NCBI GenBank assembly: GCA_018062705.1
Contig: JAGORQ010000001.1
Span: 21,624 to 85,623, forward strand
DNA: 64,000 nucleotides
Source: Candidatus Shapirobacteria bacterium
Lineage (GTDB): Bacteria > Patescibacteriota > Microgenomatia > UBA12405
Reading direction: 5' to 3'
Position numbers and translations under genes: made by a program. How positions within the stretch are numbered: position 1 is the stretch's first letter; each line of letters starts with the position of its first letter. The notes under the pieces are model-generated. The model was not told the origin of the DNA. It was given only the letters and a program-made list of their open reading frames with translations, and did not search any database. Of the stretch, positions 8,306 through 57,323 are shown piece by piece.

Positions 8306-8402
8306 ATCGTCATTGCGAGGAGTCTTATCATACGATCCCCAAAGGGGACAGGCTACACAATCCCAACGAGATTGCCACGACCTTCGGCCTCGCAATGACG
8401 TT
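8306..8402. repeat. Family C composite element (TCGTCATTGCGAGG ... CAATCCCAACGAGATTGC ... CCTCGCAATGACG) between the deacetylase stop and the map start
   Basis: 13-bp terminal inverted repeats enclose a CCAACGAGATTGC module that is shared with 38199, 54715 and 57268. Confidence 0.5.
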
Positions 8403-9138
8403 AATTTAATAACTCGGATAATTTAACAAAATTAAAGCCCTTGGATCGGAGATAGGGAATGGTAGCCTCGAGGGCCTCAGCAGAGTGAGGGGCATTTTTG
8501 TTGCCATGAAAATGGAAGAGTAAAATCGAACCATTTTGGGTTTTGGTTTTGATACTATTAATAATTGCCGGGAGATTGTCGTTAAAAGAATCGGTGCTGG
8601 CGGCATCCCAACCAACAACGGTTAAGCCGTACCTATTTGCCAGTTTAATATCAGTATCAGTTTGGCAACCACCCGGAAAACGAAAAAAATTGGGAGTAAT
8701 ACCAGTGATTTTTTTGATGGCTGATTGGGATTTTTCAAACTCCCCGTCACCACCCCAGGTGGGCATAGCAGGTAGGGCGAAGCATTGGTCAGCAAAACGA
8801 GGATGAGAGTAAGAATGGTTGGCAATTTCAAACAGTGGGTTACTAGCTAATTGACGTGATATATCTGGATAAAGCTCGGCCCACATACCGGACATAAAAA
8901 TTGTGGCGGGAATTTTTTCCCGTTCCAAAATTTCGACTATTTTATCGTTGTACCATGACTTTACTTTACCTTGTTTTAATTCTTCTACCATACCGGGGGT
9001 CATGTCAGCATCAAAAGTTAAGGCAATATTTGGTTGGGTTCGCGGTCCGTGGCTGACGTACGAAATAAATTTTGGCGAATCGACTGAGGTGGTGTGAACA
9101 TTGAAAAACGAAACTAGAAACAAAAAGAACTTAGTCAT
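8401..9138 (-). CDS. Polysaccharide deacetylase (CE4/NodB domain), secreted
   Basis: TFDADMTPGM...ANHSYSHP...LLFHFHG motifs. N-terminal signal/TM from the internal Met (MTKFFLFLVSFF). Confidence 0.75.
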   Translation of the reverse strand: MTKFFLFLVSFFNVHTTSVDSPKFISYVSHGPRTQPNIALTFDADMTPGMVEELKQGKVKSWYNDKIVEILEREKIPATIFMSGMWAELYPDISRQLASNPLFEIANHSYSHPRFADQCFALPAMPTWGGDGEFEKSQSAIKKITGITPNFFRFPGGCQTDTDIKLANRYGLTVVGWDAASTDSFNDNLPAIINSIKTKTQNGSILLFHFHGNKNAPHSAEALEATIPYLRSKGFNFVKLSELLN

Positions 9139-9760
9139 TTTCCCGTCGATAAAGAAAGTAGGAGTAAACAAAAACAAATATCACAGAGCCAAATAATGGC
9201 ACCATTAAAAAATAGACAGACAGTGTGGGCCAAAAGACTCCCAACAATGAAGTTAAGGCGCTAAGTTTGAAAAGCTTACCGCCGACTTGGTGGGTTTGAT
9301 TCCAGACTGATTCACTACTCAAAGTCCAGGGGGTGCGAATGCCGACAAACCAGTTGCGCCTGGCTTTTTGATTAAGAACCCCGGCATAATAAAAAATTAA
9401 AGAAAGTGCTGGTAATAAAAACTGAGTTAAATTAAATTCAAATCCATAATTCCAAGCAATCGTCAAAAAGTATATATAGAATAAAAAGACAAAGACTAAA
9501 TTTACAAAATTATCGTAGTATTTTTTGAACTGAGCAAAGTTGTGTTTGTACGGATCGGTTTTGGGTAAAAATAAAAACAGAAAATACAACAAAATTAATA
9601 ATGTTGGTAAAAAGAATAGACCAAAGCTTTTGGATGAATAGCCATCTACATTGTTATTGATTCCCCAATGAGTGACGATAGTAGGTGGCAGGTAAGGAAA
9701 CGAAATGATAGCTAGAGCAAACGACAATAAAATTATTAGTGGTGGAATGAATTTTTTCAT
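9131..9760 (-). CDS. SdpI/YhfL-family (DUF1648) integral membrane protein
   Basis: About 6 TM helices with a THWGINNNVDGY N-terminal motif, like SdpI immunity-type proteins. Confidence 0.4.
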   Translation of the reverse strand: MKKFIPPLIILLSFALAIISFPYLPPTIVTHWGINNNVDGYSSKSFGLFFLPTLLILLYFLFLFLPKTDPYKHNFAQFKKYYDNFVNLVFVFLFYIYFLTIAWNYGFEFNLTQFLLPALSLIFYYAGVLNQKARRNWFVGIRTPWTLSSESVWNQTHQVGGKLFKLSALTSLLGVFWPTLSVYFLMVPLFGSVIFVFVYSYFLYRREND

Positions 9761-9816
9761 TTGGTTAATTTTACCACTTGACCGTGAGACTGAACTACGA
9801 CTAAAATGATATAAGT

Positions 9817-10392
9817 ATGTTTAAACTAAATCCCCTACCCTATGCCTACGAGGCGCTCGAACCAGTTATTAGCCGTAAAATTATGGAGTTGCATCACGAT
9901 AAACACCATGCGGCCTATGTGACAGCGGCCAACGTAGCGACAGAAAAATTAGCTAAGGCCAGAGCTGGTGAGATAGAAATTGATACCCGAGCAGTAATGC
10001 GCGATTTTAGTTTTAATGCCAACGGAGCAATGATGCATGATATTTTTTGGAACTGTATGCGGGCACCAACTGAAAATAATTTACCGACTGGAAAAATGCT
10101 TGAAGAAATTAACCGAGGTTATGGTAGTTTCGAGGCTTTTAAAAAAGAATTTACGGTTGCCGCGACCACAGTGGAAGGCTCGGGCTGGGCAGTAATGTAT
10201 AAGACTCCCGAAGTACTGACTACAGGGCAACTAGAGAAACATAATTTAATGGCGCTTAATGGCTGTTTGCCAATCTTGGCTTTGGATGTATGGGAACATG
10301 CCTACTATCTTGATTACCTCAATGACCGCAAAACTTATGTAGAAAAGTGGTGGTCGTTAGTCAACTGGGAAGCAGTTGAAAAAATGTTATAG
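9817..10392 (+). CDS. sodA: Fe/Mn superoxide dismutase
   Basis: LHHDKHH N-terminal motif and DVWEHAYY C-terminal motif. Confidence 0.9.
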   Translation: MFKLNPLPYAYEALEPVISRKIMELHHDKHHAAYVTAANVATEKLAKARAGEIEIDTRAVMRDFSFNANGAMMHDIFWNCMRAPTENNLPTGKMLEEINRGYGSFEAFKKEFTVAATTVEGSGWAVMYKTPEVLTTGQLEKHNLMALNGCLPILALDVWEHAYYLDYLNDRKTYVEKWWSLVNWEAVEKML

Positions 10393-10881
10393 ATTGTCGA
10401 GGATCGAGTTGATTTCGGTATTCAAATCGCCGGTGAAAGAAGCGGTTAGAACAGAAACCTGATCTTTTTGAATTTTTATTCGTTGAATCAAGCTGATTTT
10501 GACTTTTTGATTGTAGTAATAGCCAGATAAATTGGCCGTATATAAATTTTCTGAAGATTTTCTTTTATCATCGGTGATGGTGAGAGAAGGGATGGCTGAA
10601 GTAGCGCCAGCAATTAAACTATCAGTATATTTGGCTGGAGCAGTAGCTTCAGATGACTGATTGATAGTTTTGACTATTTGGGGTTTGATGCCACTAGTAT
10701 TTTTTTCTAATTTTAAAGCTACGTTTTTGGCCTCAACAGCAGACCAGCCAGCAGGAAGTTTGTTGATTGAGTCAGAGGAAACCTGAGGCTCAGCTCGACG
10801 AAACATTGTTGGACGACGATAGATTAAATAACCACAAAGTACACCTAGAACTAAAAGAGAAGGGAGGATATATTTTTTCAT
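10387..10881 (-). CDS. Hypothetical N-terminally anchored protein, co-transcribed with the sortase
   Basis: 164 aa with a single N-terminal TM. Its start overlaps the sortase stop at the same nucleotide. Confidence 0.4.
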   Translation of the reverse strand: MKKYILPSLLVLGVLCGYLIYRRPTMFRRAEPQVSSDSINKLPAGWSAVEAKNVALKLEKNTSGIKPQIVKTINQSSEATAPAKYTDSLIAGATSAIPSLTITDDKRKSSENLYTANLSGYYYNQKVKISLIQRIKIQKDQVSVLTASFTGDLNTEINSILDNL

Positions 10882-12197
10882 TATTTGATAATTGAAGCTT
10901 TAACAATAATGCGAGAGTTAGGATAAGTGACACTACAAGTCATTAGGGCAATTTGATCACCAGTTGTCTTAATTGAGTCGACTTGGGATTTGTCGACAAA
11001 AAGCTTGTCGGTGATTTGGTAGGTTGATACCAAACCGTTATTTTCAGTCATGACTTTGTCACCAATATTTAGAGTAAATAACTGGCTAAAGACACCATAG
11101 CCATTGTGGCCGTAGTAGAGGTTGCCCTCACGTAAAACTTCGTTGTGACCGACAATAAATTGATCGCCAATTTTTTGGGGTAAATAAATTGGTTGGTTTA
11201 AATTAAGGGAGGGAATAATTAGCGCTTGATTAGTGTCGAGAGTATTTCCTGAAGGAAGTTTCTCGGTGGAATAGACCACTTCGGCAGTAGCTGCTAATTC
11301 AGAAGAAGTGCCGAGAACTGATCCACCATAACTATTTTTGATGCCATCAATTAGCGGATTGTTGTTTGTTCTAGCTCCTAGTACTCGAAAACCACCAACA
11401 TTTTGGTTGGTACAAACTACATTACTCGGGCTACCACCACGACAACCGTTTTGGGCCTGAACATAAAAACAATATTTGCCACCAGGATTGAGGGCCTTGA
11501 CAGTGTAAGTGGTGACGTTACCAACATTGGGATCACCATATATATAGTTGCCGGTAGTTGGGCCATAACCAACAGCATAGCTAGTGTGATTGCCAGGAGC
11601 ATGATTCCAAGTTAACAAAACTTTACCTCCACCGAGAGCAATGGCCACTAAATTTTGAGGTGCACCGGGATCTGAATCATTGCATGAAGGAGGATTGTTG
11701 TTCGAATTATTTGAAGGTTGAGGGGTTTGATTCTCCACCTGCGCCGTTGGCTCTGGCGAGACAAAGGGTGTGACTGTGGGAATTATTTGACAACTCTCAG
11801 TCTGTTCACAATTTAGAGTTGGAGTAACTGTTGGGGTATTTGATGGAGAAATAGTAGCTGTAGGGCTGGGATTTGAAGTAATCGTGGGTGAGGGAGTTTT
11901 CGTGGCCGTTGGGGTACGAGTGGGTGTGTTGGTAGGGCGACAATCATCATCGTCATGACGACCATGACGGCCATGTTGATTATCGTCACAATCATCATCG
12001 TGATGATTTGAAGTGGGGGTAGGGGTTGGGGTGCGAGTAGGTGTAGGTGTGCGAGTTGAAGTTGGGGTTCGAGTTGGGGTGGGAGAATTCCATTTTGCCT
12101 CAGAAACAATTTTATTCTGAAAAAATTTAGAATTAATAAAGAACACTTCGATTATTGCTAGTGCAACAATCAGACCTGCTTTGATTGTTTTTACCAT
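10881..12197 (-). CDS. Sortase-family transpeptidase with an N-terminal TM, a Pro/Thr-rich linker containing HDDDDC motifs, and an FN3-like domain
   Basis: C-terminal sortase fold with the active-site motif ALMTCS (TLxTC). (TPTRTPTP)n low-complexity region. FN3-like block ([20 protein letters not shown]...YCFYVQAQN). Confidence 0.7.
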
Positions 12198-12296
12198 ATT
12201 GGGAGATAGTATAGCACTATGAGATATAATTTGATAGGTTTTGATGATTGGGTGAGGCTATGCCAATTTTAGGTGGCGAGAGTTTGAGATTTATTA

Positions 12297-12324
12297 GTAG
12301 AGACGGGGCATGCCCCGTCTCTAC
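12297..12324. repeat. Family B palindrome (GTAGAGACGGGGCATGCCCCGTCTCTAC), intergenic
   Basis: Perfect 28-nt palindrome. Confidence 0.6.
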
Positions 12325-12400
12325 ATGATATTTCAAACAATTGTTGATAACCAAAACAAAGAGTCGCACCCAGACAATAAAAAAATATATAATATGCATC

Positions 12401-13165
12401 ATGACAACAGATACTTCATGGAAAAATGTGGGTGGGTGGTACAAAGAAATTGTCGGTGAGGAAGGGCACTTTTATCACCGTGAGGTGGTGTTGCCAAACC
12501 TACTTCGACTGATGAAACTGGATAATAAATCAAAAGTTTTGGATTTGGGCTGTGGACAGGGTGTATTGGCTAGGGCATTGCCCCCTGAAATATATTATTG
12601 GGGAGCAGACATGGCGCCAAATTTAATTGAAGAAGCAAAGAGACTCGATAAAAATCCCCGCCATGTATTTGGGGTGGCCGATGCCACTAAAACTATTCCC
12701 ATAGTTGAAACCGGATTTAGCCATATAACTGTAGTGCTGGCATTACAAAATTTGGAGAGTCCGTTTAAATTGATGAGGAATGTAGACAAATTAATGGCCA
12801 AGGATGGTAGGTTTTTTATCGTATTAAACCATCCGGCTTTTAGAATTCCCAAAAATAGTGACTGGGAAGTTGATGAAAATAAAACAGTGCAATATCGAAA
12901 AGAAAGTAAGTACATGTCTCCCTTAAAAATTGCGATTGAGTCCAGTCCGTTTGATAAAAAGAATAATCAAATTAGCATGTCTTATCATTATCCAATATCA
13001 GCCTATAGTGAAATGTTGCACGACAATGGCATGGTGATAGAAGTGATTGAAGAATGGGTGTCGCCCAAAAAATCGCAAGGACCTATGGCTAAAATTGAAG
13101 ATGTAGCCCGGCGAGAGTTTCCGTTATTTATGTGCATTGTGGCAAGAAAGGTCCAGTCGGGTTAA
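12401..13165 (+). CDS. Class I SAM-dependent methyltransferase
   Basis: VLDLGCGQGVLA motif I. TATAAT lies 7 nt upstream of this ATG. The ORF-track start at 12341 is an upstream extension. Confidence 0.65.
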   Translation: MTTDTSWKNVGGWYKEIVGEEGHFYHREVVLPNLLRLMKLDNKSKVLDLGCGQGVLARALPPEIYYWGADMAPNLIEEAKRLDKNPRHVFGVADATKTIPIVETGFSHITVVLALQNLESPFKLMRNVDKLMAKDGRFFIVLNHPAFRIPKNSDWEVDENKTVQYRKESKYMSPLKIAIESSPFDKKNNQISMSYHYPISAYSEMLHDNGMVIEVIEEWVSPKKSQGPMAKIEDVARREFPLFMCIVARKVQSG

Positions 13166-13173
13166 AATATTTC

Positions 13174-13380
13174 ATGTCGAAAAATGAATACTGGGCAATG
13201 GGAATTGGGGTGTGGTTGATTATTTTGGTGGCAATTTTTGTGGCCACGTCGTTTGGAGAAATTAAGAAACTTGACCAATGTAAAAATGAGAGAATTCGAA
13301 AATATGTCCCAACTGATTTTGTCTGGCAAGGAATTCTGGATGGAATCAAAAATGGCACCTATCAACCAAAGTGTATTTGA
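13174..13380 (+). CDS. Small single-TM protein
   Basis: Internal Met of ORF 13132..13380 (MSKNEYWAMGIGVWLIILVAIFVA). Confidence 0.3.
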   Translation: MSKNEYWAMGIGVWLIILVAIFVATSFGEIKKLDQCKNERIRKYVPTDFVWQGILDGIKNGTYQPKCI

Positions 13381-13424
13381 ATAGCTAGAAGATTTTTTGC
13401 AGATTTATTGGTACTATACGGTCA

Positions 13425-13874
13425 ATGGTAATAGTTGAAGTCACAAGTCATAGACAGGTATTGTCGGTGGCAAAAAAATTAGCAAAAAGTGAATCATTAC
13501 TATCTGTAGGTATCAGGTTTTTTAGAAAAGACCAAGTTGAAAGAGTGGTTCAGACTGGAACTGACAGGTCCGATGCTGATTCACGTGTGTGGTGTGACGA
13601 AAATGATTTTAGGGGAGTGAGACCAGCCAATATCACACCCGGAATAATAACTTATATGAGAGAGATTGACGTGGTAAGCAAGCCCGCAATAATTGTTGGT
13701 TTTAATGGAAGTAATGGTAGGTATGGTGACAGCCTAGATTACCTAAGACATATGGATGCGGACATGGCACAGGTTATTTACAATCCAACTAAAATGCGCC
13801 GAGTGTCTCTTAACGAGTGGTGGTTTATTTCTGACCCTAAGGAAGCTTTATTGGCAATCATTACCCGTCGCTAA
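13425..13874 (+). CDS. Hypothetical protein
   Basis: 149-aa ORF with compatible codon usage and no recognisable motif. Confidence 0.4.
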   Translation: MVIVEVTSHRQVLSVAKKLAKSESLLSVGIRFFRKDQVERVVQTGTDRSDADSRVWCDENDFRGVRPANITPGIITYMREIDVVSKPAIIVGFNGSNGRYGDSLDYLRHMDADMAQVIYNPTKMRRVSLNEWWFISDPKEALLAIITRR

Positions 13875-14170
13875 AGATTATATTTAAGATAGTCAATAAA
13901 ATTAATAATTTGCTGACCACTAAACTTAATCCCCTCGGCTTCGAGACGGCGACGTTGCTCGGGCCAATTGCCCAAGGAAAACTGGTTGGCTAACACTCCC
14001 CCACTTTTGACTACCCGATGGCAGGGAATAGACATGTTTTCGTTGCCCCGAAGTGCCCAGCCAACAACTCTTGGGGTGGTACCAATTAATTTGGCTATAG
14101 AACCGTAAGTAGTTACTTTACCTAGGGGTATTTGGCTAACAATCTGACGGATTTTGAGGAATATTTGCAT
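13871..14170 (-). CDS. ogt: Methylated-DNA-protein-cysteine methyltransferase (stand-alone DNA-binding/active-site domain)
   Basis: IPCHRVV active-site motif in a ~100-aa MGMT-C fold. Confidence 0.7.
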   Translation of the reverse strand: MQIFLKIRQIVSQIPLGKVTTYGSIAKLIGTTPRVVGWALRGNENMSIPCHRVVKSGGVLANQFSLGNWPEQRRRLEAEGIKFSGQQIINFIDYLKYNL

Positions 14171-14320
14171 ATTCTGTTATATATGGTAGACTACCATCTG
14201 ATTTTACGTTAGGCAACGAATCATAATACTGCCCCTGGTACAGATAGCTGTACATAAATATTTATTTTGTGGGCAAATATTACCCCGATGTGTTATCGGG
14301 ATGCCACAATTTAATAAAAT

Positions 14321-15520
14321 ATGTACAACAACAGTCGTCGTTTTGGTGGATACAATAATCATTCTCACCGTCCAAGTTTTGGTGGCAGACCTAAACGCGC
14401 CGGATTTGCTAAAAAAATAGACGAGAGATTATTTGTCAAAAAGGCAGAGGAGTTCAAAACAATTGATGAAGCAGTAACGGTAAATAGTTTTGCCGATTTT
14501 GGACTTAATCCAGTACTGCAAAAAAATATTGTGGGTAAGGGTTATACCAAACCAACTCCAATTCAGGATAGAGTAATTCCAGAGATAATGGCAGGTAAAG
14601 ATGTGTTGGGAATTGCTAACACGGGAACCGGTAAGACAGCAGCCTTTGCACTACCTTTGATCAATAAAATTTTGCAAAAACCGAATACCAGAATTTTAAT
14701 TATGGCGCCAACTCGCGAGCTGGCACAACAAATTAAACAAGATTTCCGATCTTTTACCTATGACTTGAAAATATATATCGCTTTAGCGATTGGTGGTTCG
14801 TTTATCCGCGAACAGATAATGGATATTCGTCGTGATCCACACATTGTGGTAGGCACACCAGGAAGAATTATGGATTTGGCAGAGCGCCGAGTAATTAATT
14901 TTGCAAAATTTGATACGGTTGTTTTAGATGAAGTTGACCGAATGTTGGATATGGGTTTTGTGGAAGATATCAAGGGTATTATGCAACAAATTCCTAAGAC
15001 TCGACAAACACTTTTCTTCTCGGCCACAGTAGATCGAAAAATTGAAACATTAATCGATACCTTTTTGACAAACCCAGCTAAAATTTCAGTTAAAACTCAA
15101 GATACTTCGTCTCACGTCGAACAAGATGTGGTCCGAGTAGCTCGTGGTCAAAAAGAAAGCAAATTGTGTGACCTATTAACCCAAGAACATTTCAAAAAAG
15201 TGTTGGTCTTTGGTGCCACCAAAATGATGGTGGACAGAATTACCACCACCTTGATTCAGAGAGGTTTTAGAGCTGATTCAATTCATGGTAACAAGGCCCA
15301 AAATAAACGTCAGAGAGTCTTGCAAGCATTCAAACTTAGCCAAATAAATATTTTAGTGGCCACAGATGTGGCGGCACGGGGACTAGATATTGCTGATATT
15401 TCCCATGTAATTAATTATGATCAACCAAATAACTACGAAGATTATATTCACCGAATTGGTCGTACTGGCCGAGGTGATGCCAAAGGTTTTGCTTTGACGT
15501 TTGTTGAAGAGAGATACTAA
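14321..15520 (+). CDS. DEAD-box ATP-dependent RNA helicase with an Arg/Gly-rich N-terminus
   Basis: Q motif (PTPIQ), Walker A (ANTGTGKT), DEVD (DEAD variant), SAT, and HRIGRTGR motif VI. Confidence 0.85.
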   Translation: MYNNSRRFGGYNNHSHRPSFGGRPKRAGFAKKIDERLFVKKAEEFKTIDEAVTVNSFADFGLNPVLQKNIVGKGYTKPTPIQDRVIPEIMAGKDVLGIANTGTGKTAAFALPLINKILQKPNTRILIMAPTRELAQQIKQDFRSFTYDLKIYIALAIGGSFIREQIMDIRRDPHIVVGTPGRIMDLAERRVINFAKFDTVVLDEVDRMLDMGFVEDIKGIMQQIPKTRQTLFFSATVDRKIETLIDTFLTNPAKISVKTQDTSSHVEQDVVRVARGQKESKLCDLLTQEHFKKVLVFGATKMMVDRITTTLIQRGFRADSIHGNKAQNKRQRVLQAFKLSQINILVATDVAARGLDIADISHVINYDQPNNYEDYIHRIGRTGRGDAKGFALTFVEERY

Positions 15521-15531
15521 AACATTAAATT

Positions 15532-15559
15532 GTAGAGACGTTGCGCGCAACGTCTCTAC
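15532..15559. repeat. Family B palindrome (GTAGAGACGTTGCGCGCAACGTCTCTAC) between convergent genes; possible bidirectional terminator
   Basis: Perfect palindrome 12 nt after the DEAD helicase stop, followed by an A-run on + and a T-rich stretch on -. Confidence 0.55.
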
Positions 15560-15571
15560 AAAAAAATATCA

Positions 15572-16288: not shown

Positions 16289-16294
16289 ACAAAA

Positions 16295-16969: not shown

Positions 16970-17042
16970 TTAGTGTAGTTTACTACTCTAGAAGCCAACA
17001 TTCTAAATTAGTACAATGCCTGAGTTATAGATTATCGCTACT

Positions 17043-20876: not shown

Positions 20877-21533
20877 ATGAGAATACTAGTCGTCGAAGAT
20901 GAACACCGAATTGCCAACACCATTAAAAAAGGGTTGGAACTAGAACATTATGCTGTTGATGTGGCCTATGATGGAATTGAAGGTTATGATTTGGCCAGTA
21001 GTGGCGACCATGATTTGATTATCTTAGATTTAATGTTGCCCGGAAAAGACGGTCTAAAAATTTGTGCCGAGCTTAGGGCTAATAAAATTCAAACACCAAT
21101 TTTGATTTTGACGGCCAAAGGCCAAACACAAGACAAGGTGAAGGGGTTAAACATGGGAGCAGACGATTATTTGACAAAACCATTTGCGTTTGAAGAATTG
21201 TTGGCTCGAATCAAGGCGTTGTCGAGAAGACCAAAAACTGCGATTAATCAGATGATTGAAGTGGCTGATTTGAAAATTAATACCACAACTTATGAAGTTA
21301 AAAATGGTAATAAAATAATTGAACTATCGAAGAAAGAATATGCATTGCTCGAGTGTCTGGCCCGGCATGCCAATAAAATTTTGAGTAAAGATCAAATTAT
21401 GAATCAGGTGTGGAACTATGAGGCAGATATTTTACCAAATACGGTGGAAGTTTATATTAAAAAATTGAGAAATAAATTGGGGGAGAAAGTTATTAAAACA
21501 GTGAGAGGGTTTGGATATAAACTAGAGAGTTAA
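20877..21533 (+). CDS. OmpR/PhoB-family response regulator
   Basis: REC domain (D-D-K residues, ILDLMLPG) plus a C-terminal winged helix (VRGFGYKL). Confidence 0.85.
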   Translation: MRILVVEDEHRIANTIKKGLELEHYAVDVAYDGIEGYDLASSGDHDLIILDLMLPGKDGLKICAELRANKIQTPILILTAKGQTQDKVKGLNMGADDYLTKPFAFEELLARIKALSRRPKTAINQMIEVADLKINTTTYEVKNGNKIIELSKKEYALLECLARHANKILSKDQIMNQVWNYEADILPNTVEVYIKKLRNKLGEKVIKTVRGFGYKLES

Positions 21534-38169: not shown

Positions 38170-38198
38170 ATATTTAAAGTATAGCACCACCATACTTT

Positions 38199-38346
38199 CG
38201 TCATTGCGATCCGCCAGTTGGCGGAGTGGCAATCCCAACGAGATTGCTTCGTCCCCTTCGGCTACGCTCAGGGTCCTCGCAATGACCCTTCGACTTCGCT
38301 CACAATCCTCGTTATAACCCTTCGACTTCGCTCAGGGTTATAACGT
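38199..38346. repeat. Family C composite element in a divergent promoter region; includes a duplicated CTTCGACTTCGCTCA(G/C) submodule
   Basis: gtcattgcga...ggcaatcccaacgagattgcttcg...cctcgcaatgacc, then two copies of cttcgacttcgctca. Confidence 0.5.
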
Positions 38347-38351
38347 ATTAT

Positions 38352-41557: not shown

Positions 41558-41564
41558 GTGTTTT

Positions 41565-41598
41565 TAATTACTAATTACTAATTACTAATTACTAATTT
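41565..41598. repeat. (TTACTAAT)n microsatellite in the divergent promoter region between the rluB-like gene and the nuclease gene
   Basis: taattactaattactaattactaattactaattt. Confidence 0.4.
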
Positions 41599-43496: not shown

Positions 43497-43549
43497 ATCC
43501 CTCTGTCCTGCGGTCGCCGGACCTCTCCCTTTGAAGAAAGGGAGAAATA
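43497..43549. repeat. Family E two-hairpin element immediately 5' of the exonuclease ATG
   Basis: aatccctctgtc-[ctgcggtcgccggac]-ctctccctttgaagaaagggagaaataac. Confidence 0.55.
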
Positions 43550-45698: not shown

Positions 45699-45705
45699 AT
45701 AGGTC

Positions 45706-45735
45706 ATTCCCGCGGAGGCGGGAATCTAATTTTTT
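45706..45735 (+). terminator. 8-bp GC hairpin (ATTCCCGC GGAG GCGGGAAT) plus T-run; terminator-like with no obvious upstream + gene
   Basis: A similar hairpin attcccgccttcgcgggaat occurs at 7389..7408. Confidence 0.3.
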
Positions 45736-46372: not shown

Positions 46373-46421
46373 AATCCCTCTGTCAGCGTTGCTGACATCT
46401 CCCTTTGAAGAAAGGGAGAAC
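46373..46421. repeat. Family E two-hairpin element immediately 3' of the RRM gene stop
   Basis: aatccctctgtc-[agcgttgctgacat]-ctccctttgaagaaagggagaacc. Confidence 0.55.
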
Positions 46422-46475: not shown

Positions 46476-46501
46476 AGAGACGCATTGCAATGCGTCTCTA
46501 C
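46476..46501. repeat. Family B palindrome (AGAGACGCATTGCAATGCGTCTCTAC) overlapping the RAYT2 stop codon
   Basis: Perfect palindrome. The minus-strand TAG of RAYT2 lies inside it. Confidence 0.6.
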
Positions 46502-47040
46502 AATTTGGAAAATAATCTGTCCTTTTGCCAGTTTTTGGGGTTGTTTCTGATGTAGTATTTGATTTGAGTTAACCGTTTTTCGTCGTGAATAATTTCGTCA
46601 TAAAAACGAGGTTGCCAGGCGAAATAAATATTATGTTTTTTGCAGATGCGTTTGACGGCACCTTTGAAGGATTTGATGGTTTGGGAAATTGTTTGGATTG
46701 ATTTGGAATTTATATCTTGATAAAAATCTGGGTGGTTCCGATGGCTATGGATAAATATTGGCGTTGGGGAACTTTCGTGTAGAGACGCATGGCAATGCGT
46801 CTCTACAGGGATATCCCGAATGGTGATTAGCAGGTGAACATGGTTGGGCATGACCACCCAGGGGTTGATAATTAAAGATTTTCGAATAGAGATGGTTTTG
46901 ATTAATTCATCAACAGCAATTTGACCCCTATCCGATAATTCCATTTTTCCGTTGATAATTTTGCCAAAGAAATTGTTATGGTTGTAGGTGCAGATGGTGA
47001 TGAAGTAAAAGCCAGGTGTGGAGTAGTCCCAACCATTCAA
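46498..47040 (-). CDS. IS200/IS605-family HuH Y1 transposase (RAYT-like), second copy, carrying an in-frame family B palindrome
   Basis: YFITICTYN N-terminal motif, HuH (PNHVHLLIT), C-terminal YYIRNNPKNW. Residues VETHCHASLH are encoded by the palindrome at 46779..46806. Confidence 0.7.
   Translation of the reverse strand: MNGWDYSTPGFYFITICTYNHNNFFGKIINGKMELSDRGQIAVDELIKTISIRKSLIINPWVVMPNHVHLLITIRDIPVETHCHASLHESSPTPIFIHSHRNHPDFYQDINSKSIQTISQTIKSFKGAVKRICKKHNIYFAWQPRFYDEIIHDEKRLTQIKYYIRNNPKNWQKDRLFSKL
46779..46806. repeat. Family B palindrome (GTAGAGACGCATGGCAATGCGTCTCTAC) in-frame inside RAYT2
   Basis: Differs by 1 nt from the copy at 46476. Confidence 0.6.
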
Positions 47041-48565: not shown

Positions 48566-48766
48566 TCAGGCGGTGACGGAGCAGAAGACTCTTTTCTCGC
48601 CATAGTCGTGTTTATCAAACTGTTTTTGATGTTTAGTATCATGCTCGGCAAATTCCTCCTTAAAAACTCGATGCATTTCTTTGATTATAAGTTTAAAGTA
48701 TTCACCAAACTTAACGTCGAATTTTTCATCAATTTTTTTCTCTAACTTATCACTAAATTCTTGCAA
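48566..48766 (-). CDS. Small charged hypothetical protein
   Basis: 66-aa Lys/Glu-rich ORF. Confidence 0.3.
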   Translation of the reverse strand: MQEFSDKLEKKIDEKFDVKFGEYFKLIIKEMHRVFKEEFAEHDTKHQKQFDKHDYGEKRVFCSVTA

Positions 48767-48853
48767 ATCCTTTTTTGTAACAAAATCAGTATTCTTGTTT
48801 ATAAATAATACTACCTCTAGTTTTAATTTTTAAAAATAGACATCAAAAGCATC

Positions 48854-49468: not shown

Positions 49469-49551
49469 TAAATTAATAATATAATCTTGGTACAGAGAGT
49501 CAATGACCTAGAGTGGTGAAACCGTAGCTGAAACAAGGTAGAATTGTCAAT

Positions 49552-51249: not shown

Positions 51250-51701
51250 ATTTGACCTAAAGATATTTTTTGGATGCTGACTGGCTGATCGTTGACCATG
51301 ACTTTGGTGCCAATCGGTTGACCGAGAAGGGCAATGCCGAGTGGACTGTCAGCGGATACCCAGTCTGGACGGAGTCGAGCATCGTTTTTGCCAACCAAGG
51401 TGAGGGTGATTTGACGTTTATCGGTTTCAAAAAAAATAGTGACCTGGTGACCAAACTCGACAGTATTGGTTTGAGTTGGAGCGGTAGCCACAGTTGATTC
51501 TTTTAAATCGGTTTCGAGTTGATCAATTTGAGATTGAAGCACCTGGGCTCGTTCGCCTAGAAAGATGTAGGCGGAATTTTCTTTGAGGTCGCCCTCGGCG
51601 GCGGCGGCTTGACGCTCGTCGTAGGTGCGGGTGAGCTCGGACTTGAGCTCCTGAATTTGAGTGGTAAGGTTGTCTAAACCTAGTTGAGTAATCAAGGACA
51701 T
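51246..51701 (-). CDS. greA: Transcription elongation factor GreA
   Basis: N-terminal coiled coil (LTTQIQELKSELTR...) and C-terminal FKBP-like domain (VEFGHQVTIFF...GKNDARLRPDWVSADSPLGIALLG). Start at the internal Met. Confidence 0.8.
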   Translation of the reverse strand: MSLITQLGLDNLTTQIQELKSELTRTYDERQAAAAEGDLKENSAYIFLGERAQVLQSQIDQLETDLKESTVATAPTQTNTVEFGHQVTIFFETDKRQITLTLVGKNDARLRPDWVSADSPLGIALLGQPIGTKVMVNDQPVSIQKISLGQI

Positions 51702-51748
51702 GACGTCTATTTTAACACAAGAGCTAGTTTTGTAAGTTATACTTTGGC

Positions 51749-52447
51749 ATGAAATATGCAGTTTTGACAGGCGGATCATCAACAATTGGGCGGTTAGTAG
51801 CCAACGAGTTAATTAAAAATGATTTTGAAGTGGCGTTAATTGGACGAGATACTCAAAAATTAAAAGAAATCGGATTGCCGTATATTGAAGCAGATTTGTC
51901 GAACACAAAAAATATAGATACGTTAGTTAATAAAATATTAGAAAAAAATAAAAAAATAGACTTAATTGCCAATATTGCCGGTGTCTGGCACAACTCCGAT
52001 AGTGTTTTTGCTGGCGTAGATTTTGAGAAGTTTGAAGATAAAACAATAACTGAAACGATGAATGTGGGGATTTTGTCGCCGATGCTTTTGGTAAAGAAAT
52101 TAATTCCCAATATGGCAACTAATTCTTTGATAACTAATTTGTCTGGTACTTTTGAAAATGGGGGAAAAGGCTGGCTTCCTTATTTTGTTTCAAAAAGAGC
52201 GATTGAAGATTTTACTGTAGGATTAGCTGACGAATTACGAGAGAAAAATATTCGGGTGTGTGGAATTTCACCATCGGACACAGCAACCGAAAGTTATAAA
52301 AAGTTTTTCCCACAATATATTGAAGATTCTCTTGACCCAAGAGAAATTGCTAAATTTGTAACAGATCTATATTTTAATTCAAAAGAAACTGGGAAAATTT
52401 TTGTATTGAAAAAAGACACAAAACCTTTTGAGAATTTTCATTATTAA
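51749..52447 (+). CDS. SDR-family oxidoreductase
   Basis: TGGSSTIGR Rossmann motif, NIAG, YxxxK (YFVSKRA). Confidence 0.8.
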   Translation: MKYAVLTGGSSTIGRLVANELIKNDFEVALIGRDTQKLKEIGLPYIEADLSNTKNIDTLVNKILEKNKKIDLIANIAGVWHNSDSVFAGVDFEKFEDKTITETMNVGILSPMLLVKKLIPNMATNSLITNLSGTFENGGKGWLPYFVSKRAIEDFTVGLADELREKNIRVCGISPSDTATESYKKFFPQYIEDSLDPREIAKFVTDLYFNSKETGKIFVLKKDTKPFENFHY

Positions 52448-53007
52448 TGACCTACAAAACTCATAATGCATTTGGATTGGGATTGATGTTGGCGATAGCC
52501 ATATATCAGCCGGCAGAATCGATTGGGGTGGCCACAATAATTTTGGCGCTAATTGCTAATGCAGTTGGATCGATTGCCCCAGATATGGATCAGGGGTCAA
52601 ACAAGCTTTGGAGTATGTTGCCGGTGGGCAATATTATTGGAAAATTTTTGAGACGAATTTTTTTGGGGCACAGAGCAGTGTCACACTCATTCTTGGGAAT
52701 CTGGATAATTTATAAAATAAACATGTGGATATTTTTTAATATATTTAACCCTAATTTTGTAAATCCGGAGTGGATTGTGTTGGGATTTATGGTGGGATAT
52801 TTGTCGCACATTTTGATTGATGGATTAACTGAAGAGGGTGTTCCCCTACTCTGGCCACTGCCCTGGAAAGTAGGCTTCCCGCCAATTAAACCCTGGCGGA
52901 TAAAAACTGGTAAATGGTTTGAAAACTTGATTATTTTTCCAGGAATATTATTGTGGATTGGCTGGATGGGGTGGGATAAGTGGCTTCACTTGATATTGTT
53001 TTTATAG
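52447..53007 (+). CDS. Membrane-bound metal-dependent hydrolase, YdjM/DUF457 family
   Basis: Conserved His residues in TM segments (HNAFGLG...HRAVSHSFLG...HILIDGLT). Confidence 0.45.
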   Translation: MTYKTHNAFGLGLMLAIAIYQPAESIGVATIILALIANAVGSIAPDMDQGSNKLWSMLPVGNIIGKFLRRIFLGHRAVSHSFLGIWIIYKINMWIFFNIFNPNFVNPEWIVLGFMVGYLSHILIDGLTEEGVPLLWPLPWKVGFPPIKPWRIKTGKWFENLIIFPGILLWIGWMGWDKWLHLILFL

Positions 53008-53460
53008 AGAATGCCAATTGAACAATAGTAGAATTAGACTAGCGGTGGAAAACATCATGATGATTTGAAAAAAGACTTGCATAATAATCAGGCATTGTTG
53101 ATAAGAGATGTTGCCAAAAATATAGCGAAGAATTTGAAACCGATCATCAATATAATGTGGGAAATGCTTTGGTTCCAAAAATTGCTGGAGGAAAAAGTAA
53201 AGTGTTTCGCCGGCACTACGAATGACCCAAAAAATTAGGAAGAAAAATAAACCAAACTTTAGTTGCTCGGTGACTACGGTAATAATTGAGGCAATTAGAC
53301 CGTAAAGCGAGAAGATAAATATATCTTCCCAGACAAAGGCGCCAATTAAAAATGCCCAACTGTAGGTGAACTCGGCAATTTGCTTGCCCCGACGAATACT
53401 TCGCCAGGAGATGACTAAGAGGATTAAAAAAATTAGGGTAGAGAGGTAGGCGGGGAACAT
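53002..53460 (-). CDS. Hypothetical polytopic membrane protein
   Basis: About 4 TM helices from the internal Met MFPAYLSTLIF. The upstream part of the track ORF lies over repeats B7/B8. Confidence 0.4.
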   Translation of the reverse strand: MFPAYLSTLIFLILLVISWRSIRRGKQIAEFTYSWAFLIGAFVWEDIFIFSLYGLIASIITVVTEQLKFGLFFFLIFWVIRSAGETLYFFLQQFLEPKHFPHYIDDRFQILRYIFGNISYQQCLIIMQVFFQIIMMFSTASLILLLFNWHSL

Positions 53461-53496
53461 TGCCTGATTGTAACATTTATGAAAAAACTTGTACCA

Positions 53497-53522
53497 AGAG
53501 ACGTCATATATGACGTCTCTAC
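53497..53522. repeat. Family B palindrome (AGAGACGTCATATATGACGTCTCTAC)
   Basis: Perfect palindrome, intergenic. Confidence 0.6.
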
Positions 53523-53613
53523 AAAAATATTCTAGAGTCTTCGCTAAAACAAAACAAAACAAACAGAAGAGTTTAAATTGAAGATAAATACCTAGGTTTA
53601 GTTTTATGCTGAA

Positions 53614-53638
53614 AGAGACGCACATAGTGCGTCTCTAC
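53614..53638. repeat. Family B palindrome (AGAGACGCACATAGTGCGTCTCTAC) 4 nt from the stop of the minus-strand kinase gene
   Basis: Near-perfect palindrome with one central unpaired nt. Second copy 92 nt from B7. Confidence 0.6.
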
Positions 53639-53642
53639 AAAA

Positions 53643-54086
53643 TTAAATTATTTCTTTAACTAGTTTTTCGACTGGTAAGGTGGCGTCGAGGCTTTTGTCG
53701 ATAAGTCCGGCACGTTTAAGCTCGGATTGATAATCAAAATTACCATCAAGATAAAGTGATAGATCTTCTTTGCCGGACTTTAAATTAATTTGATTACGAC
53801 GAGTGGCTTCGGTGACAGTTATTTCGAGTTGATAAATTTTGAAACCAAGTTTTTTGGCTTCGCGAAGATCATCGAGAGTTAAGTAATCAGTGTTGGCAAT
53901 TAACAAAATATCTTTTTGAGCAAAAGCATCTTTGAGGATTTTGGGGATTTGATCGGCATATTTTTCGTGAACATCGGAAGTTGTTAGTTCTTCGTCAATT
54001 TCCCGATATTGGATATTTTTGGACCGGAGATGTGTGGCGAGAGTGGTTTTACCCGAGAGTGACGCGCCGATGATGATGGTTTTCAT
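53643..54086 (-). CDS. P-loop NTPase, small kinase-like protein
   Basis: Walker A (GASLSGKTT) in a 147-aa protein. Confidence 0.5.
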   Translation of the reverse strand: MKTIIIGASLSGKTTLATHLRSKNIQYREIDEELTTSDVHEKYADQIPKILKDAFAQKDILLIANTDYLTLDDLREAKKLGFKIYQLEITVTEATRRNQINLKSGKEDLSLYLDGNFDYQSELKRAGLIDKSLDATLPVEKLVKEII

Positions 54087-54087
54087 A

Positions 54088-54678
54088 TTATTTTTGAGGA
54101 TTTTTAAACATTTTACCGTGTCCAGGAATTATAAAATCGGCGACCTCAAGCACGGTCTGTCTTGATTTTTTAAGTGCTTCAATGTCGGTGGCAAAAGGGT
54201 CGACTAAATTCATTAAGTCTTCAACGGTGTCAGACTTTTGTTCACCATCTTCCCACCAAAAAACATCTGGGGCAATAGCTACTGTGCCATCTTTGGTGGT
54301 AACTAATAGCGTGGCATCTTCGGGTGAATGACCGGGGGTGGATAATATTTTTATGTCGGTGCCTGGCAAATAATCCTTGTAAAAATGCTCCTCATCTTCT
54401 CGCCACATGATGCCTCCATCATAAATGTCTACACCAGGAAAAAGTCGGATGTTTAAAAAATGATCGGGGTGGTAATGACTCAAATAAACTCCGGTAATGT
54501 CGGAAATTTTGAGATTATTTTTTGATAAAGCCTCGAGTAATAATTTTGAATTGGTGCCGGGATCAACAATAAATTTTTTGGTAACCGTATCGATTAAAGT
54601 GGTAGTGGGGCTGGCAATATAGATACCGTCTTTGCCAGGGTGGGCATAGCCTTCAATGAGAATGGTGATTGTATTCAT
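54088..54678 (-). CDS. MBL-fold metallo-hydrolase
   Basis: HxHxDH motif (LSHYHPDH) and downstream His/Asp ligands. Confidence 0.75.
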   Translation of the reverse strand: MNTITILIEGYAHPGKDGIYIASPTTTLIDTVTKKFIVDPGTNSKLLLEALSKNNLKISDITGVYLSHYHPDHFLNIRLFPGVDIYDGGIMWREDEEHFYKDYLPGTDIKILSTPGHSPEDATLLVTTKDGTVAIAPDVFWWEDGEQKSDTVEDLMNLVDPFATDIEALKKSRQTVLEVADFIIPGHGKMFKNPQK

Positions 54679-54714
54679 ATGGGGTTATTTTATAACATTT
54701 ACTTTTTATTTGGA

Positions 54715-54772
54715 CTGTTCCAATTTCAACTAGATTGCCACCCTTTCGACTTTGCTCAGGATCGCAATAACG
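54715..54772. repeat. Family C module copy (CAATTTCAACTAGATTGCC...TTTCGACTTTGCTCAGGATCGCAATAACG) immediately upstream of the MBL hydrolase gene
   Basis: About 85% identical to the copy at 57268, including the adjacent start-codon-proximal sequence. Confidence 0.5.
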
Positions 54773-55057
54773 TATGTATATGAATATTGATTAACAAAGT
54801 GTAATATTAATTATGAAAGGAAAACATAAAAGGATTAGAAGAAAAGAACTAAAAGACACTACTTCGATTGGCGAATGGTCAAGAATGTTGCACAAATGGT
54901 GGAAATTGAGTGTGCTAAATAAAATTGAATTCAAGAAGAAACGGGAAGACATACAATAGTACCCGTCTTTGTTTTCTAGCTATTTTATTGATGGTGATTG
55001 ATGCCATGTCGATATCAGGAGTTTAATTAAAATCTGTGTGTTAATTGGGACGGAGCA

Positions 55058-56044
55058 TTAGCTTTCAACTACTTTTTTTAACTCGTTTAATAAATTATCT
55101 TCAACTTCTATTTCACCTGCATCTAGCCTTGACTTGGTGGTCTTGTCGCCTTTTTCGCCAGGCATAAATATTTCATCAACTCCGGGCATTTTTTTGGTTG
55201 ATTTTACTTTGGTAGCTAACTCGGAAGTTTGTTTTTTAAAATCATTTATGTCTACTAACATTGTAGGATCAATGGCATAAATCAAGTTCCCCCAACCTTT
55301 TTCCGGACTGATACCAACATAAGAAGCGGCAATTAATGGACCAGTAAACATTTCGACAATAAGTGAAAGTGAAGCGCCTTTGTAGGATCCATCAAATGGT
55401 CGGATTGCCCCTTCCATAGCTAAGGCTGGATTAGTGGTTAAATTGCCTTGTTCATCGTAGGCAATACCTTCGGGAATTTGACGACCGGCAGTTTTGGCTT
55501 CAATTAATCCAAAATAAGGCATGGCTGATGTAGCCATATCTAAAACCACCGGCTCACTATCTGTTGGGACGCCAATAGCAAATGGATTGGTACCAAATAT
55601 TGCCTGATAAGAACCGTGATAATTTACACTAGGTGGCGAACCGGCAAATACAAAACCAATTAAATTTTCTTTAGCAATTTGGCGGGCAAAATAACCGATG
55701 GCGCCAGTTGAAGTTGAAGTATTATTGATACCAACAATTCCAAAACCATGCTCTTTGGCTTTTAAAATTGCCGTTTCGACGGCTTTTTTCATAACCACCA
55801 TACCCTGATTGTGGGCACCATCGAGTAGGGAGGAGAGTTTTGTTTCTTTGATGGTTTTGATTTCTGACGCAGTTGGGTCTTTGGGAATTCCTTTACCAAT
55901 TAATTTAACAACTCCTTGATTATTACCCCTAAGTTGGGCATACATTAAAACTTCGGAAATTATGTTGACTTCTTCTGGTTGATAACCATATTTAACCAAA
56001 GCTTTATCGACAAGTGTTTTTAGTTCGGAAATTGATATTTTCAT
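55058..56044 (-). CDS. Ldh_2-family malate/L-lactate/sulfolactate dehydrogenase
   Basis: Overall Ldh_2 family pattern (N-terminal YGYQPEE...AQLRGNNQG, C-terminal EKGDKTT). Confidence 0.65.
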   Translation of the reverse strand: MKISISELKTLVDKALVKYGYQPEEVNIISEVLMYAQLRGNNQGVVKLIGKGIPKDPTASEIKTIKETKLSSLLDGAHNQGMVVMKKAVETAILKAKEHGFGIVGINNTSTSTGAIGYFARQIAKENLIGFVFAGSPPSVNYHGSYQAIFGTNPFAIGVPTDSEPVVLDMATSAMPYFGLIEAKTAGRQIPEGIAYDEQGNLTTNPALAMEGAIRPFDGSYKGASLSLIVEMFTGPLIAASYVGISPEKGWGNLIYAIDPTMLVDINDFKKQTSELATKVKSTKKMPGVDEIFMPGEKGDKTTKSRLDAGEIEVEDNLLNELKKVVES

Positions 56045-56050
56045 ATTGTC

Positions 56051-57238
56051 CTATTGTATAACAATCGATTGCTTTTTTTGGAAAAATAAAAATGAGGCGG
56101 TGATGAAGAGTAAAATTAGTCCGATGATGGTATAGATAATTGGACTTTGAAATAGACCGATAAAATACATGCCAAGCCAGACACCGACAGCACTAAAAAA
56201 TGAAGAAAACATGTTGACAAAGGAAATTGAGGTGGCACGCTCTCGGGAACTTAACTCTTGATTTAAATAAGTGTCAGAAATTATTGGGGCAGTAGCAGTG
56301 ATCATTTCAATTAATAAAATAATACTCACTCCACCAATAAAACCGGCTATTTTTGATGGAAGTAAAACCAAAACTACCAGTAATAAATAGGTGTAGATGA
56401 CTTTGTTTTGGGAAAAACGAATAATTAGATGACCAATCACCATAACCGCAATTGTTTTGAGAATCGCACTAACTCCAAATAACAAACTTTGATTTTTGGC
56501 ATCGAGTCCTAAATCAATGGCATAGGAATAATTGAGATATTCACGAAAAATTACTCCAAAAGAAATTGCCGTAACCGACATTAGAGCAATTAATTTGATC
56601 CGTGATGAATGACTGATTGCCTTGAAACCATCGACAATCATTTGCCGATAACCAGTCCAGGAAAACTGCTGACTATCAATTGTCGGTTCGTTGACAAAAA
56701 ACCAGATGATAATTTCAACAAGACTGGTAACTCCGTACAACAAATAGGGTAGTGGACCCCAGAGGTTAAAAAGATAACCACCAGCAAAAGAACCAATGAT
56801 AATTCCGATACGAGAAATAGTTGAGGCAAGAGAATTAATTTTGGAAAAACTTTTTTCGTGGCCGACTGACAACAAGTGATCATAAATTAGCGCGGTATTG
56901 GAACCCGAGACAAAAGCCCCAGCCACCCCCCAGAGAAGTGAGCCAATTATTAAGTGGGTACTGTTAGTGGCAAAAGCAACGGTAAAGGCGGCCAGGGCAA
57001 TGCCAATTTTGCCAATAATAATTGAAGTTTTGCGGCCAAAAACATCAGCAAAAGCACCGGTGGGCACTTCCAAAAACATAGTTAAAATAATACCGATACT
57101 TTCAATTAATCCGACGGTAGACATGGGGATAAACCGGGTATACCAGATTAACCAAATAGGCAGTAAAAACTTCATGCCTTCAAAAAATGAGGAAAGATAG
57201 TAGAGACGAATGTTTTTGTCGGTGGACATGTTTGGCAT
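56051..57238 (-). CDS. MFS transporter
   Basis: 12 TM helices. Loop 2-3 motif (GAFADVFGRK). Confidence 0.8.
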   Translation of the reverse strand: MPNMSTDKNIRLYYLSSFFEGMKFLLPIWLIWYTRFIPMSTVGLIESIGIILTMFLEVPTGAFADVFGRKTSIIIGKIGIALAAFTVAFATNSTHLIIGSLLWGVAGAFVSGSNTALIYDHLLSVGHEKSFSKINSLASTISRIGIIIGSFAGGYLFNLWGPLPYLLYGVTSLVEIIIWFFVNEPTIDSQQFSWTGYRQMIVDGFKAISHSSRIKLIALMSVTAISFGVIFREYLNYSYAIDLGLDAKNQSLLFGVSAILKTIAVMVIGHLIIRFSQNKVIYTYLLLVVLVLLPSKIAGFIGGVSIILLIEMITATAPIISDTYLNQELSSRERATSISFVNMFSSFFSAVGVWLGMYFIGLFQSPIIYTIIGLILLFITASFLFFQKKQSIVIQ

Positions 57239-57267
57239 ATTTTATAACAATTACTTTTTATTGGGCT

Positions 57268-57323
57268 GGGGAGATTCCAACGAGATTGCTTCTCCTTCGA
57301 CTTCGCTCAGGATCGCAATGACG
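57268..57323. repeat. Family C module copy (GAGATTCCAACGAGATTGCTTCTCCTTCGACTTCGCTCAGGATCGCAATGACG) upstream of the MFS gene, in a divergent promoter region
   Basis: Shares the CCAACGAGATTGC, CTTCGACTTCGCTCAGG and CGCAATGACG submodules with C1-C3. Confidence 0.5.

Follow-up and report, generated by a model that had tools for sequence, protein, structure and literature searches.

Repeats upstream of four genes in a Candidatus Shapirobacteria genome as a probable local sample of the CGTC-tagged super-family of repetitive extragenic palindromic sequences

A stretch of 64,000 nt from a Candidatus Shapirobacteria genome (GenBank assembly GCA_018062705.1, contig JAGORQ010000001.1, positions 21,624 to 85,623; hereafter the window, with a G+C content of 39%, to which all coordinates refer) carries related repeats, termed Family C, upstream of four minus-strand genes. 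The repeat loci are numbered C1 to C4 and precede map (Peptidase_M24), a DUF4349 gene, a metallo-beta-lactamase (MBL) hydrolase gene (Lactamase_B) and a major facilitator superfamily (MFS) transporter gene (MFS_1), respectively. This placement raises the question of what the repeats are, for which a preliminary description of the sequence had named a shared transcription-factor binding module and a promoter-carrying MITE (a miniature transposable element with inverted repeats). The anatomy of the units, their distribution across genomes, the constraint on their pairing, their absence from orthologous loci and a native -10 box upstream of map indicate that the copies of Family C are probably local representatives of a repeat from the CGTC-tagged super-family of repetitive extragenic palindromic (REP) sequences, and not a shared regulatory site or promoter.

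A unit of Family C follows the plan CGTC-ATTGC-GA-(variable hairpin)-GWR-GCAAT-CTCGTTGG, in which the CGTC tag is unpaired, ATTGC and GCAAT form a basal stem of 5 bp, the internal loop is rich in purines, and an inner hairpin and the tail CTCGTTGG complete the unit. The inner hairpin is free in sequence, and its pairing is kept between copies. Read in the sense of the downstream gene, all four loci open with CGTCATTGCGA, followed by a variable segment, GCAATCTCG and TTGG. C3 and C4 are single units. C1 and C2 contain a second unit in inverted orientation with the CGTC ends pointing outward (head-to-head or HH dimers), and C2 adds tandem partial copies that make it a small cluster. Three 32-nt copies stand in tandem in C2. 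The tag is CGTC in both arms of C1, in the left arm of C2 and in C4, GGTC in the right arm of C2, and CGTT in C3, and copies from other genomes have CGTC or TGTC.

The motifs common to the loci are more frequent than expected by chance, as estimated from 100 dinucleotide shuffles of the window for each motif. With up to three mismatches, CTTCGACTTCGCTCAGG has five matches (0.04 expected; 0/100 shuffles). The motif CCAACGAGATTGC has seven with up to two mismatches (1.03 expected; 0/100 shuffles), of which only the four at the loci are real copies, and CGCAATGACG has six with up to one mismatch (2.1 expected; 2/100 shuffles). A covariance model trained solely on units from other genomes and then run on the window matched five units, all within C1 to C4, and gave no match better than E ~1 in the rest of the window. 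The four loci described earlier are all present at the coordinates given for them. Neither tRNA nor tmRNA genes were found in the window, and a literature search with the strings of the four motifs met with nothing but chance matches to primers. The refined limits are 8308–8400 for C1, 38199–38349 for C2, 54730–54772 for C3 with a tail down to 54687, and 57281–57323 for C4 with a tail down to 57239; the individual features are as follows.

8308–8400, minus strand: C1, an HH dimer with the tags outside (sequence and fold).
8367–8400, minus strand: canonical unit of C1, CGTCATTGCGAGGCCGAAGGTCGTGGCAATCTCG (covariance model, 39.2 bits, E = 1.8e-9).
8308–8366, plus strand: partner arm of C1, with the head CGTCATTGCGAGG, a long insert containing the hairpin TCCCC-AAA-GGGGA, and the degenerate tail ACAATCCCAACGAG (sequence).
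38199–38237, plus strand: left unit of C2, CGTCATTGCGA-TCCGCCAGTTGGCGGA-GTGGCAATCCCA (covariance model, 31 bits, E = 5.5e-7).
38239–38287, minus strand: right unit of C2, GGTCATTGCGAGGACCCTGAGCGTAGCCGAAGGGGACGAAGCAATCTCG, an HH dimer with the left unit (covariance model, 45.1 bits, E = 2.8e-11).
38286–38349, plus strand: extension of C2, two more tandem 32-nt partial copies (CCCTTCGACTTCGCTCA...) (repeat family D4, fold and sequence).
54730–54772, minus strand: C3, a single degenerate unit, CGTTATTGCGA-TCCTGAGCAAAGTCGAAAGGGTG-GCAATCTAG (covariance model, 14.4 bits, E = 0.059).
54687–54711, minus strand: tail of C3, AAATAAAAAGTAAATGTTATAAAAT, with a -10-like box 8 nt before the MBL hydrolase ATG (common to C4).
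57281–57323, minus strand: C4, a single unit, CGTCATTGCGA-TCCTGAGCGAAGTCGAAGGAGAA-GCAATCTCG, then TTGG (covariance model, 39.4 bits, E = 1.6e-9).
57239–57263, minus strand: tail of C4, CAATAAAAAGTAATTGTTATAAAAT, with a -10-like box before the MFS start (sequence and alignment with C3).
8293–8298, minus strand: native -10 box of map, TATAAT, outside the element and 8 nt before the ATG (kept in orthologues).
38178–38183, minus strand: -10-like box of the DUF4349 gene, TATACT, outside C2 at a distance of 14 nt and 8 nt ahead of the ATG (sequence).

As single strands, C1 and C2 are predicted to form an outer stem of 10–13 bp around three hairpins, with z scores of -4.5 to -5.0 on either strand. 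For C1 the outer stem has 13 bp (z -4.5 on either strand) and is made by the 13-bp inverted ends already reported for this element, which are real; the right unit and HH dimer of C2 reach z -4.7 to -5.0. The last copy in C2 contains a perfect 12-bp hairpin of CGTTATAACCCT and AGGGTTATAACG (about 38310–38345). The partner arm of C1 (8308–8366) was not matched by the covariance model trained on foreign units.

The same units occur far outside the window. One genome per species was scanned for CGTCATTGCGA-N(5–35)-GCAATCTCGTTGG, a frame of 24 fixed bases, which was located at no fewer than 118 loci in about 12 phyla; the pattern demanded the tail, and relatives with a CCA tail lie outside this sample. 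Among the loci listed, with taxa assigned by record title, the carriers are Chloroflexota (Dehalococcoidia/SAR202 and others, with many copies per genome), Alpha- and Gammaproteobacteria, Actinomycetota, Armatimonadota, Bacteroidota (Flavobacteriaceae), Rhodothermota (Rubricoccaceae), Bacillota (Clostridia/Coproplasma), Patescibacteria (six metagenome-assembled genomes (MAGs) of Shapirobacteria, besides Paceibacterota and Saccharibacteria), Omnitrophota, Nitrospirota, Abyssobacteria, and one Methanoperedens MAG. The frame is also found in cultured hosts, on plasmids of Methylosinus trichosporium OB3b, Methylocystis rosea and Halomonas. In general, a foreign locus consists of a left arm and a spacer of 0–60 nt, with an inverted version of the left arm as its right arm. 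Among the matches listed, 122 dimers are HH, 23 are tail-to-tail (TT, tags inside) and 24 are head-to-tail (HT, tandem), and 86 units are unpaired. No target-site duplication was apparent, as 68 of the 95 distinct dimers have no flanking base that matches, and no length of duplication is recurrent. Clustering of 1,727 open reading frames (ORFs) from 118 of these loci revealed no associated gene, the commonest family being present in seven loci.

Two further observations concern the distribution. In several SAR202/Dehalococcoidia loci (L011, L016, L019, L071 and others), the CGTC dimer is nested in a longer inverted repeat, CACGCGTACCCAGTTT...AAAATGGGTACGCGTG, forming a larger composite element. 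A 20-base version of the frame has 36 matches to viral contigs, by a rough estimate slightly above chance and too few for phages to be proposed as the main vehicle.

Between the fixed flanks, at least 166 distinct inner sequences were found, many of which form perfect hairpins without being related in sequence (e.g., GGCCGCC-AAA-GGCGGCC, GCCCCGC-CGCT-GCGGGGC, and TCCGCC-ATCT-GGCGGA). The inner segment measures 8–50 nt, with a stem of 3 to 9 or more bp and a loop of 3–12 nt. In 28 distinct units that all have an 18-nt inner segment, 91.6% of cells are paired in the two-helix structure, compared to 76% in shuffles and 29–50% with slid partners. Double-sided changes number 46 against 11.9 in shuffles, a value reached by 0/500 shuffles, and compensatory changes occur in all six inner pairs. 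The basal stem has the variant ATCGC/GCGAT, and at the A/T start of the stem the pairs 5–34, 6–33 and 7–32 are formed in 86–100% of the 28 units.

This combination of a tag, a hairpin and inverted dimers resembles a known class of repeats. A survey of REPs divided them into GTAG- and CGTC-tagged super-families (Di Nocera, De Gregorio and Rocco, 2013, BMC Genomics 14:522; PMC3733652). As the text of that survey describes them, CGTC REPs have an unpaired CGTC tag with the variants TGTC and CCTC, and their stem starts with complementary A and T; HH dimers predominate, TT dimers are rare and HT dimers negligible. They mostly lie between co-directional or convergent genes, near 3' ends, with no associated transposase, and are reported from five phyla, mostly from Alphaproteobacteria, including dRS3 of Neisseria and RPE-4/RPE-6 of Rickettsia (PMC3733652). 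With the CGTC REPs so described, Family C shares the CGTC/TGTC tag, the A/T start of the stem, the predominance of HH dimers (122 against 23 TT and 24 HT), the intergenic position (in other low-GC genomes often near 3' ends), the occurrence in several phyla and the lack of an adjacent transposase gene. It occurs in Patescibacteria, Chloroflexota and other phyla, against a total of five phyla in that paper.

The resemblance does not reach the level of a described family. The four CGTC families have, according to the same text, a stem of 8–9 bp, a loop of 4–5 nt and an unpaired 3-nt tail that is mostly CCA (PMC3733652). In contrast, the ATTGCGAG-type stem of Family C is split, with 5 bp at its base, GA/GWR as internal loop and then an inner hairpin that varies, and its tail CTCGTTGG is CTCG(TTGG) in all copies retrieved, as the scan required, and not CCA. 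Family C would therefore belong to the CGTC super-family and to none of its four described families, as far as these are defined by the values in the text of the survey. The survey itself allows that bulged or unusual CGTC members may have escaped detection (PMC3733652).

Could the four copies nevertheless be binding sites through which one transcription factor co-regulates map and the DUF4349, MBL hydrolase and MFS transporter genes, as the preliminary description had proposed? Inverted half-sites, ATTGC and GCAAT, do precede all four genes, and the element has the same orientation in each case. On the other hand, the distance from element to -10 box varies (9, 14 and about 40 nt), the frame recurs in about 12 phyla with many copies per genome, and the compensatory changes in the core, which keeps pairing and not sequence, point to a folded single strand and not to recognition of a duplex. 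Moreover, the genes on either side of 22 elements in other low-GC genomes are convergent in 9 cases, a setting without a promoter, co-directional in 10 and divergent in 3. The elements are also absent from the orthologous promoters at map and PMT_2/DUF4349, and a common binding module is accordingly very improbable.

The orthologous loci provide the most direct comparison. Six map orthologues (L120–L125; 67–83% protein identity) all lack the element, and all six keep a -10 box (GCGCTATAAT, GCTATAAT or GATATAAT) located 5 to 8 nt before the start codon. The map -10 box is considered native because these element-free orthologues keep it, and C1, which directly adjoins the TAA stop codon (8401–8403) of a polysaccharide deacetylase gene and ends 9 nt upstream of the map -10 box, is by this sequence comparison an insertion between the native box and the deacetylase stop codon. 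Similarly, five syntenic PMT_2/DUF4349 pairs (L207–L211) keep the divergent arrangement, and none of them contains the element. One of these loci, L211, is on the same contig as L013, which has the family elsewhere. Judged from the element-free loci of map and PMT_2/DUF4349, both C1 and C2 are insertions, and the expectation that the elements are conserved at orthologous promoters does not hold for either locus. For the region of C3 and C4, relatives of the Ldh_2 gene in metagenomes do not keep the synteny of the window, with no MFS gene and no MBL/p147 block separating Ldh_2 from the next shared gene.

Two details of these loci may be added. The 11-mer TAGCCTGTCCC occurs both in the partner arm of C1 (8343–8353) and at positions 195–205 of L120, the closest map orthologue and one free of the element, and part of this arm may be native upstream DNA caught between two C1 units. 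In L207–L211, at about 2800–3004, a lysine-rich ORF of 43–66 aa is located between PMT_2 and DUF4349 and starts 16 nt from the PMT_2 start. This small ORF is missing from 38170–38350 of the window, where C2 fills the gap.

If the elements were not binding sites, they might still supply promoters. The preliminary description was correct in placing a TATAAT box (map) and a TATACT box (DUF4349) 8 nt from the ATG, and it predicted leaderless transcripts from them. A TATAAT box (up to one mismatch) ending 5–10 nt before the ATG is present in 27 of the 54 ATG-start genes of the window compared to 7% of control ATGs, and only one of the 54 has a sequence resembling a Shine-Dalgarno motif. This suggests that mRNAs of the window are mostly leaderless or have very short leaders. 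The leaderless-type layout is a rule of the genome and not a property of the element, because it is shared by half of these genes. Other spots with the same layout include 10881–12197, 13425, 19844, 32057, 47649 and 57376.

A more specific form of this proposal is a mobile cassette in which unit and tail travel jointly and bring a -10 box to the downstream gene, as with the Correia elements of Neisseria. C3 and C4 fit such a cassette, since their alignment runs from the CGTC tag through to the -10 box with no large gap and about 80% identity. Their common tail AAATAAAAAGTAAWTGTTATAAAAT contains the -10-like box, and the 25-nt tails agree at 24 of 25 positions (two matches in the window, 0.00 expected). 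In addition, the last copy of C2 puts a TATAAC 8 nt before the ATG (38352) of the divergent PMT_2 gene. Against this, the -10 boxes of map and DUF4349 both lie outside C1 and C2, the former is present in the element-free orthologues, and inspection of the ends of C1 and C2 for a -35 box showed no acceptable hexamer 16–18 nt from the -10 box. Many members of the family are situated between convergent genes, and neither the C3/C4 tail nor the loop CCTGAGCGAAGTCGAAGG has a real copy in 1.4 Mb of fetched related loci. The tail may be a promoter that was co-duplicated with the unit. However, C3 and C4 are 2.5 kb apart, and a local duplication or gene conversion would explain their likeness, including the tail, equally well. 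We consider the cassette improbable, and for map and DUF4349 at C1 and C2 the promoter-carrying part of the earlier proposal finds no support; the C3/C4 tail and the TATAAC before PMT_2 may contribute promoters.

What remains of the MITE proposal is its structural part. Family C is a dispersed, modular, non-autonomous inverted-repeat element and is MITE-like in a loose sense; it shares inverted ends with the classical MITEs derived from DDE transposases, and lacks their target-site duplication. With the promoter-bearing Correia MITEs it has in common a short inverted repeat near gene starts and possible promoter hexamers. Unlike them, it shows no TA duplication, and the -10 boxes at C1 and C2 are outside the element, that of map being native.

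A third possibility, which is compatible with a REP identity, is that the elements act in transcripts as structured RNA, for example by forming a hairpin at the 3' end of the upstream mRNA and stabilising or terminating it. C1 follows immediately after the deacetylase stop codon, and in 7 of 29 instances in other low-GC genomes the facing 3' gene end is no more than 8 nt away; in the window, only C1 of the four loci abuts a stop codon. The changes among units include some G-U pairs, and REPs are reported in the text of the 2013 survey to act in this manner (PMC3733652). On the other hand, C2 and C4 lie between divergent genes, upstream of leaderless-type promoters, and are probably untranscribed. 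The units are followed by no T run, the folds are equally good on both strands, and Rfam gave no match at gathering thresholds in the whole window and none at E ≤ 1 around C2. An RNA function is unlikely as the explanation for the family, and for C1 such a role may exist at the deacetylase transcript's 3' end.

Several points weigh against the assignment to the CGTC super-family. The window copies are only approximately 65–88% alike, and all four have the same orientation to the downstream gene. Two of them, C2 and C4, have divergent genes on either side, an uncommon setting within the family, and C3 and C4 alone have no significant fold (z about 0; C3 z -0.4). The 25 nt common to C3 and C4 include a -10 box, and a local regulatory or promoter role is thus possible there. 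The families described in the text of the survey differ from Family C in stem (8–9 bp), loop (4–5 nt) and tail (CCA). The foreign loci are mostly from MAGs, in which some taxon labels may be wrong, the archaeal one being the most doubtful, and taxa with a single hit need caution. Finally, no transposition event, excised form or mobilising enzyme was seen in this analysis.

The assignment to the CGTC REPs nonetheless accounts for most of the features above, and it suggests how the elements may be maintained. They would be non-autonomous and copied or maintained as a single-stranded hairpin by a trans-acting factor, persisting where insertion is tolerated, namely in intergenic DNA. Promoters of this host appear to consist of a -10 box only. 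Since such promoters abut the start codons, an insertion just upstream of the box, or after a stop codon as in C1, would do little harm. Family C would then be neutral towards expression, giving map and DUF4349 no promoter and making no regulon of the four genes, and a false lead towards a shared regulon or promoter element would be removed.

An invariant 24-base frame over about a dozen phyla, among them the Patescibacteria with their tiny genomes, and possibly in an archaeon, combined with hairpins that are particular to each lineage, invites the speculation that a widely shared recogniser acts on the frame and that -10 boxes are occasionally co-opted as in C3 and C4. We give this reading a low likelihood. 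If it were true, the recogniser would be either a mobilising enzyme that crosses phyla or a conserved host factor, and units in leaderless genomes may occasionally become portable promoters with a -10 tail. CGTC REPs have no known transposase, and a frame that stays the same across phyla while the hairpin is lineage-specific offers a handle on the question, raised in 2013, of what mobilises or maintains them. The present loci would extend CGTC-type REPs to Candidatus Shapirobacteria (Patescibacteria), beside two RAYT/GTAG-REP units in the same 64 kb, where RAYT denotes a REP-associated tyrosine transposase. For annotators, masking of the units is advisable, as they yield spurious ORFs and apparent "motifs".

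Other repeat systems offer partial parallels. As in REPIN/RAYT systems, two inverted units with a short spacer form one long hairpin, the element is non-autonomous and without target-site duplication, and the genome encodes RAYT-like Y1 transposases. Accounts of these systems include those of Bertels and Rainey from 2011, Nunvar from 2010 and Ton-Hoang from 2012. Unlike in these systems, the tag of Family C is CGTC and not GTAG (GT[AG]G), and the RAYT-like genes in the 64 kb examined are flanked by GTAG-tagged REPs and not by Family C. REPINs are moreover described as lineage-specific and vertically inherited, whereas the frame of Family C is common across phyla. The bacterial interspersed mosaic elements (BIMEs) of Escherichia coli are similar in being a mosaic of alternating palindromic units with variable linkers and occasional tandem amplification; the sequences are unrelated, and no evidence of binding by integration host factor (IHF) or gyrase, unlike for BIMEs, was obtained for Family C.

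The two RAYT-like genes of the window both match Pfam Y1_Tnp, and the best NCBIfam match of their products is the REP-associated tyrosine transposase (E = 1e-18 and 2.5e-12), below the model cut-off. Among solved structures, one of the proteins weakly matches TnpA-REP 4ER8.

5238–5711, plus strand: RAYT-like gene 1, with the motifs MPNHIHFIL and IWQRNYHEHIIR..YIVNNPKNW.
46498–47040, minus strand: RAYT-like gene 2, in the region 46476–47040 and flanked by GTAGAGACG..CGTCTCTAC.

The first gene is preceded by six tandem 42-nt repeats, each containing GGGTTTGGGCAAGCCAAACCC-CTAC, and is followed by one inverted repeat copy, GTAG-GGGTTTTGCTTGCCCAAACCC; by its sequence, the region 4941–5753 combines GTAG-REP and RAYT into one unit, here in a genome of Patescibacteria. 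The second gene receives its TAG stop codon from a GTAGAGACGCATTGCAATGCGTCTCT palindrome, and a second copy of this palindrome lies in frame at 46778–46807 and is translated as VETHCHASLH. The GTAG-tagged REPs that flank the two genes differ from each other and are unrelated to Family C.

Further repeats are spread over the window. GTAG-tagged perfect palindromes of the form GTAGAGACG-N(8–10)-CGTCTCTAC are present at 7490, 12299, 15534, 30143, 46476, 46781 and 53497, with a fixed stem and a variable centre, and several resemble two-way terminators in having A and T runs on their flanks. The sequence GTCATTCCCGCGRAGGCGGGAATC, which we take to be a second CGTC-tagged REP type resembling dRS3 of Neisseria and the CGTC-1 family, is located at 7386–7411 and 45703–45728. 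One copy is upstream of an Rce1-like gene that, compared with the orthologues, is itself an insertion between map and folD. Tandem arrays of the heptamers TAATTAC and AGATTTA/AGATGTA lie directly upstream of gene starts (4422–4456, 5983–6017 and 41564–41598, and at 21532, 23818, 24546, 32910, 39430 and 45649), and the array at 41564–41598 fills the gap between two divergent genes. A hairpin repeat, GACCTCTCCCTTTGAAGAAAGGGAGAA, occurs at 3604–3630, 43520–43546 and 46394–46420, with one copy inside a methionyl-tRNA synthetase ORF. Lastly, repeated coding segments in 60249–63994 (60900–60958 and 63936–63994, 81% identical; 60249 and 60615) point to a large, repetitive protein region of surface type where the window ends.

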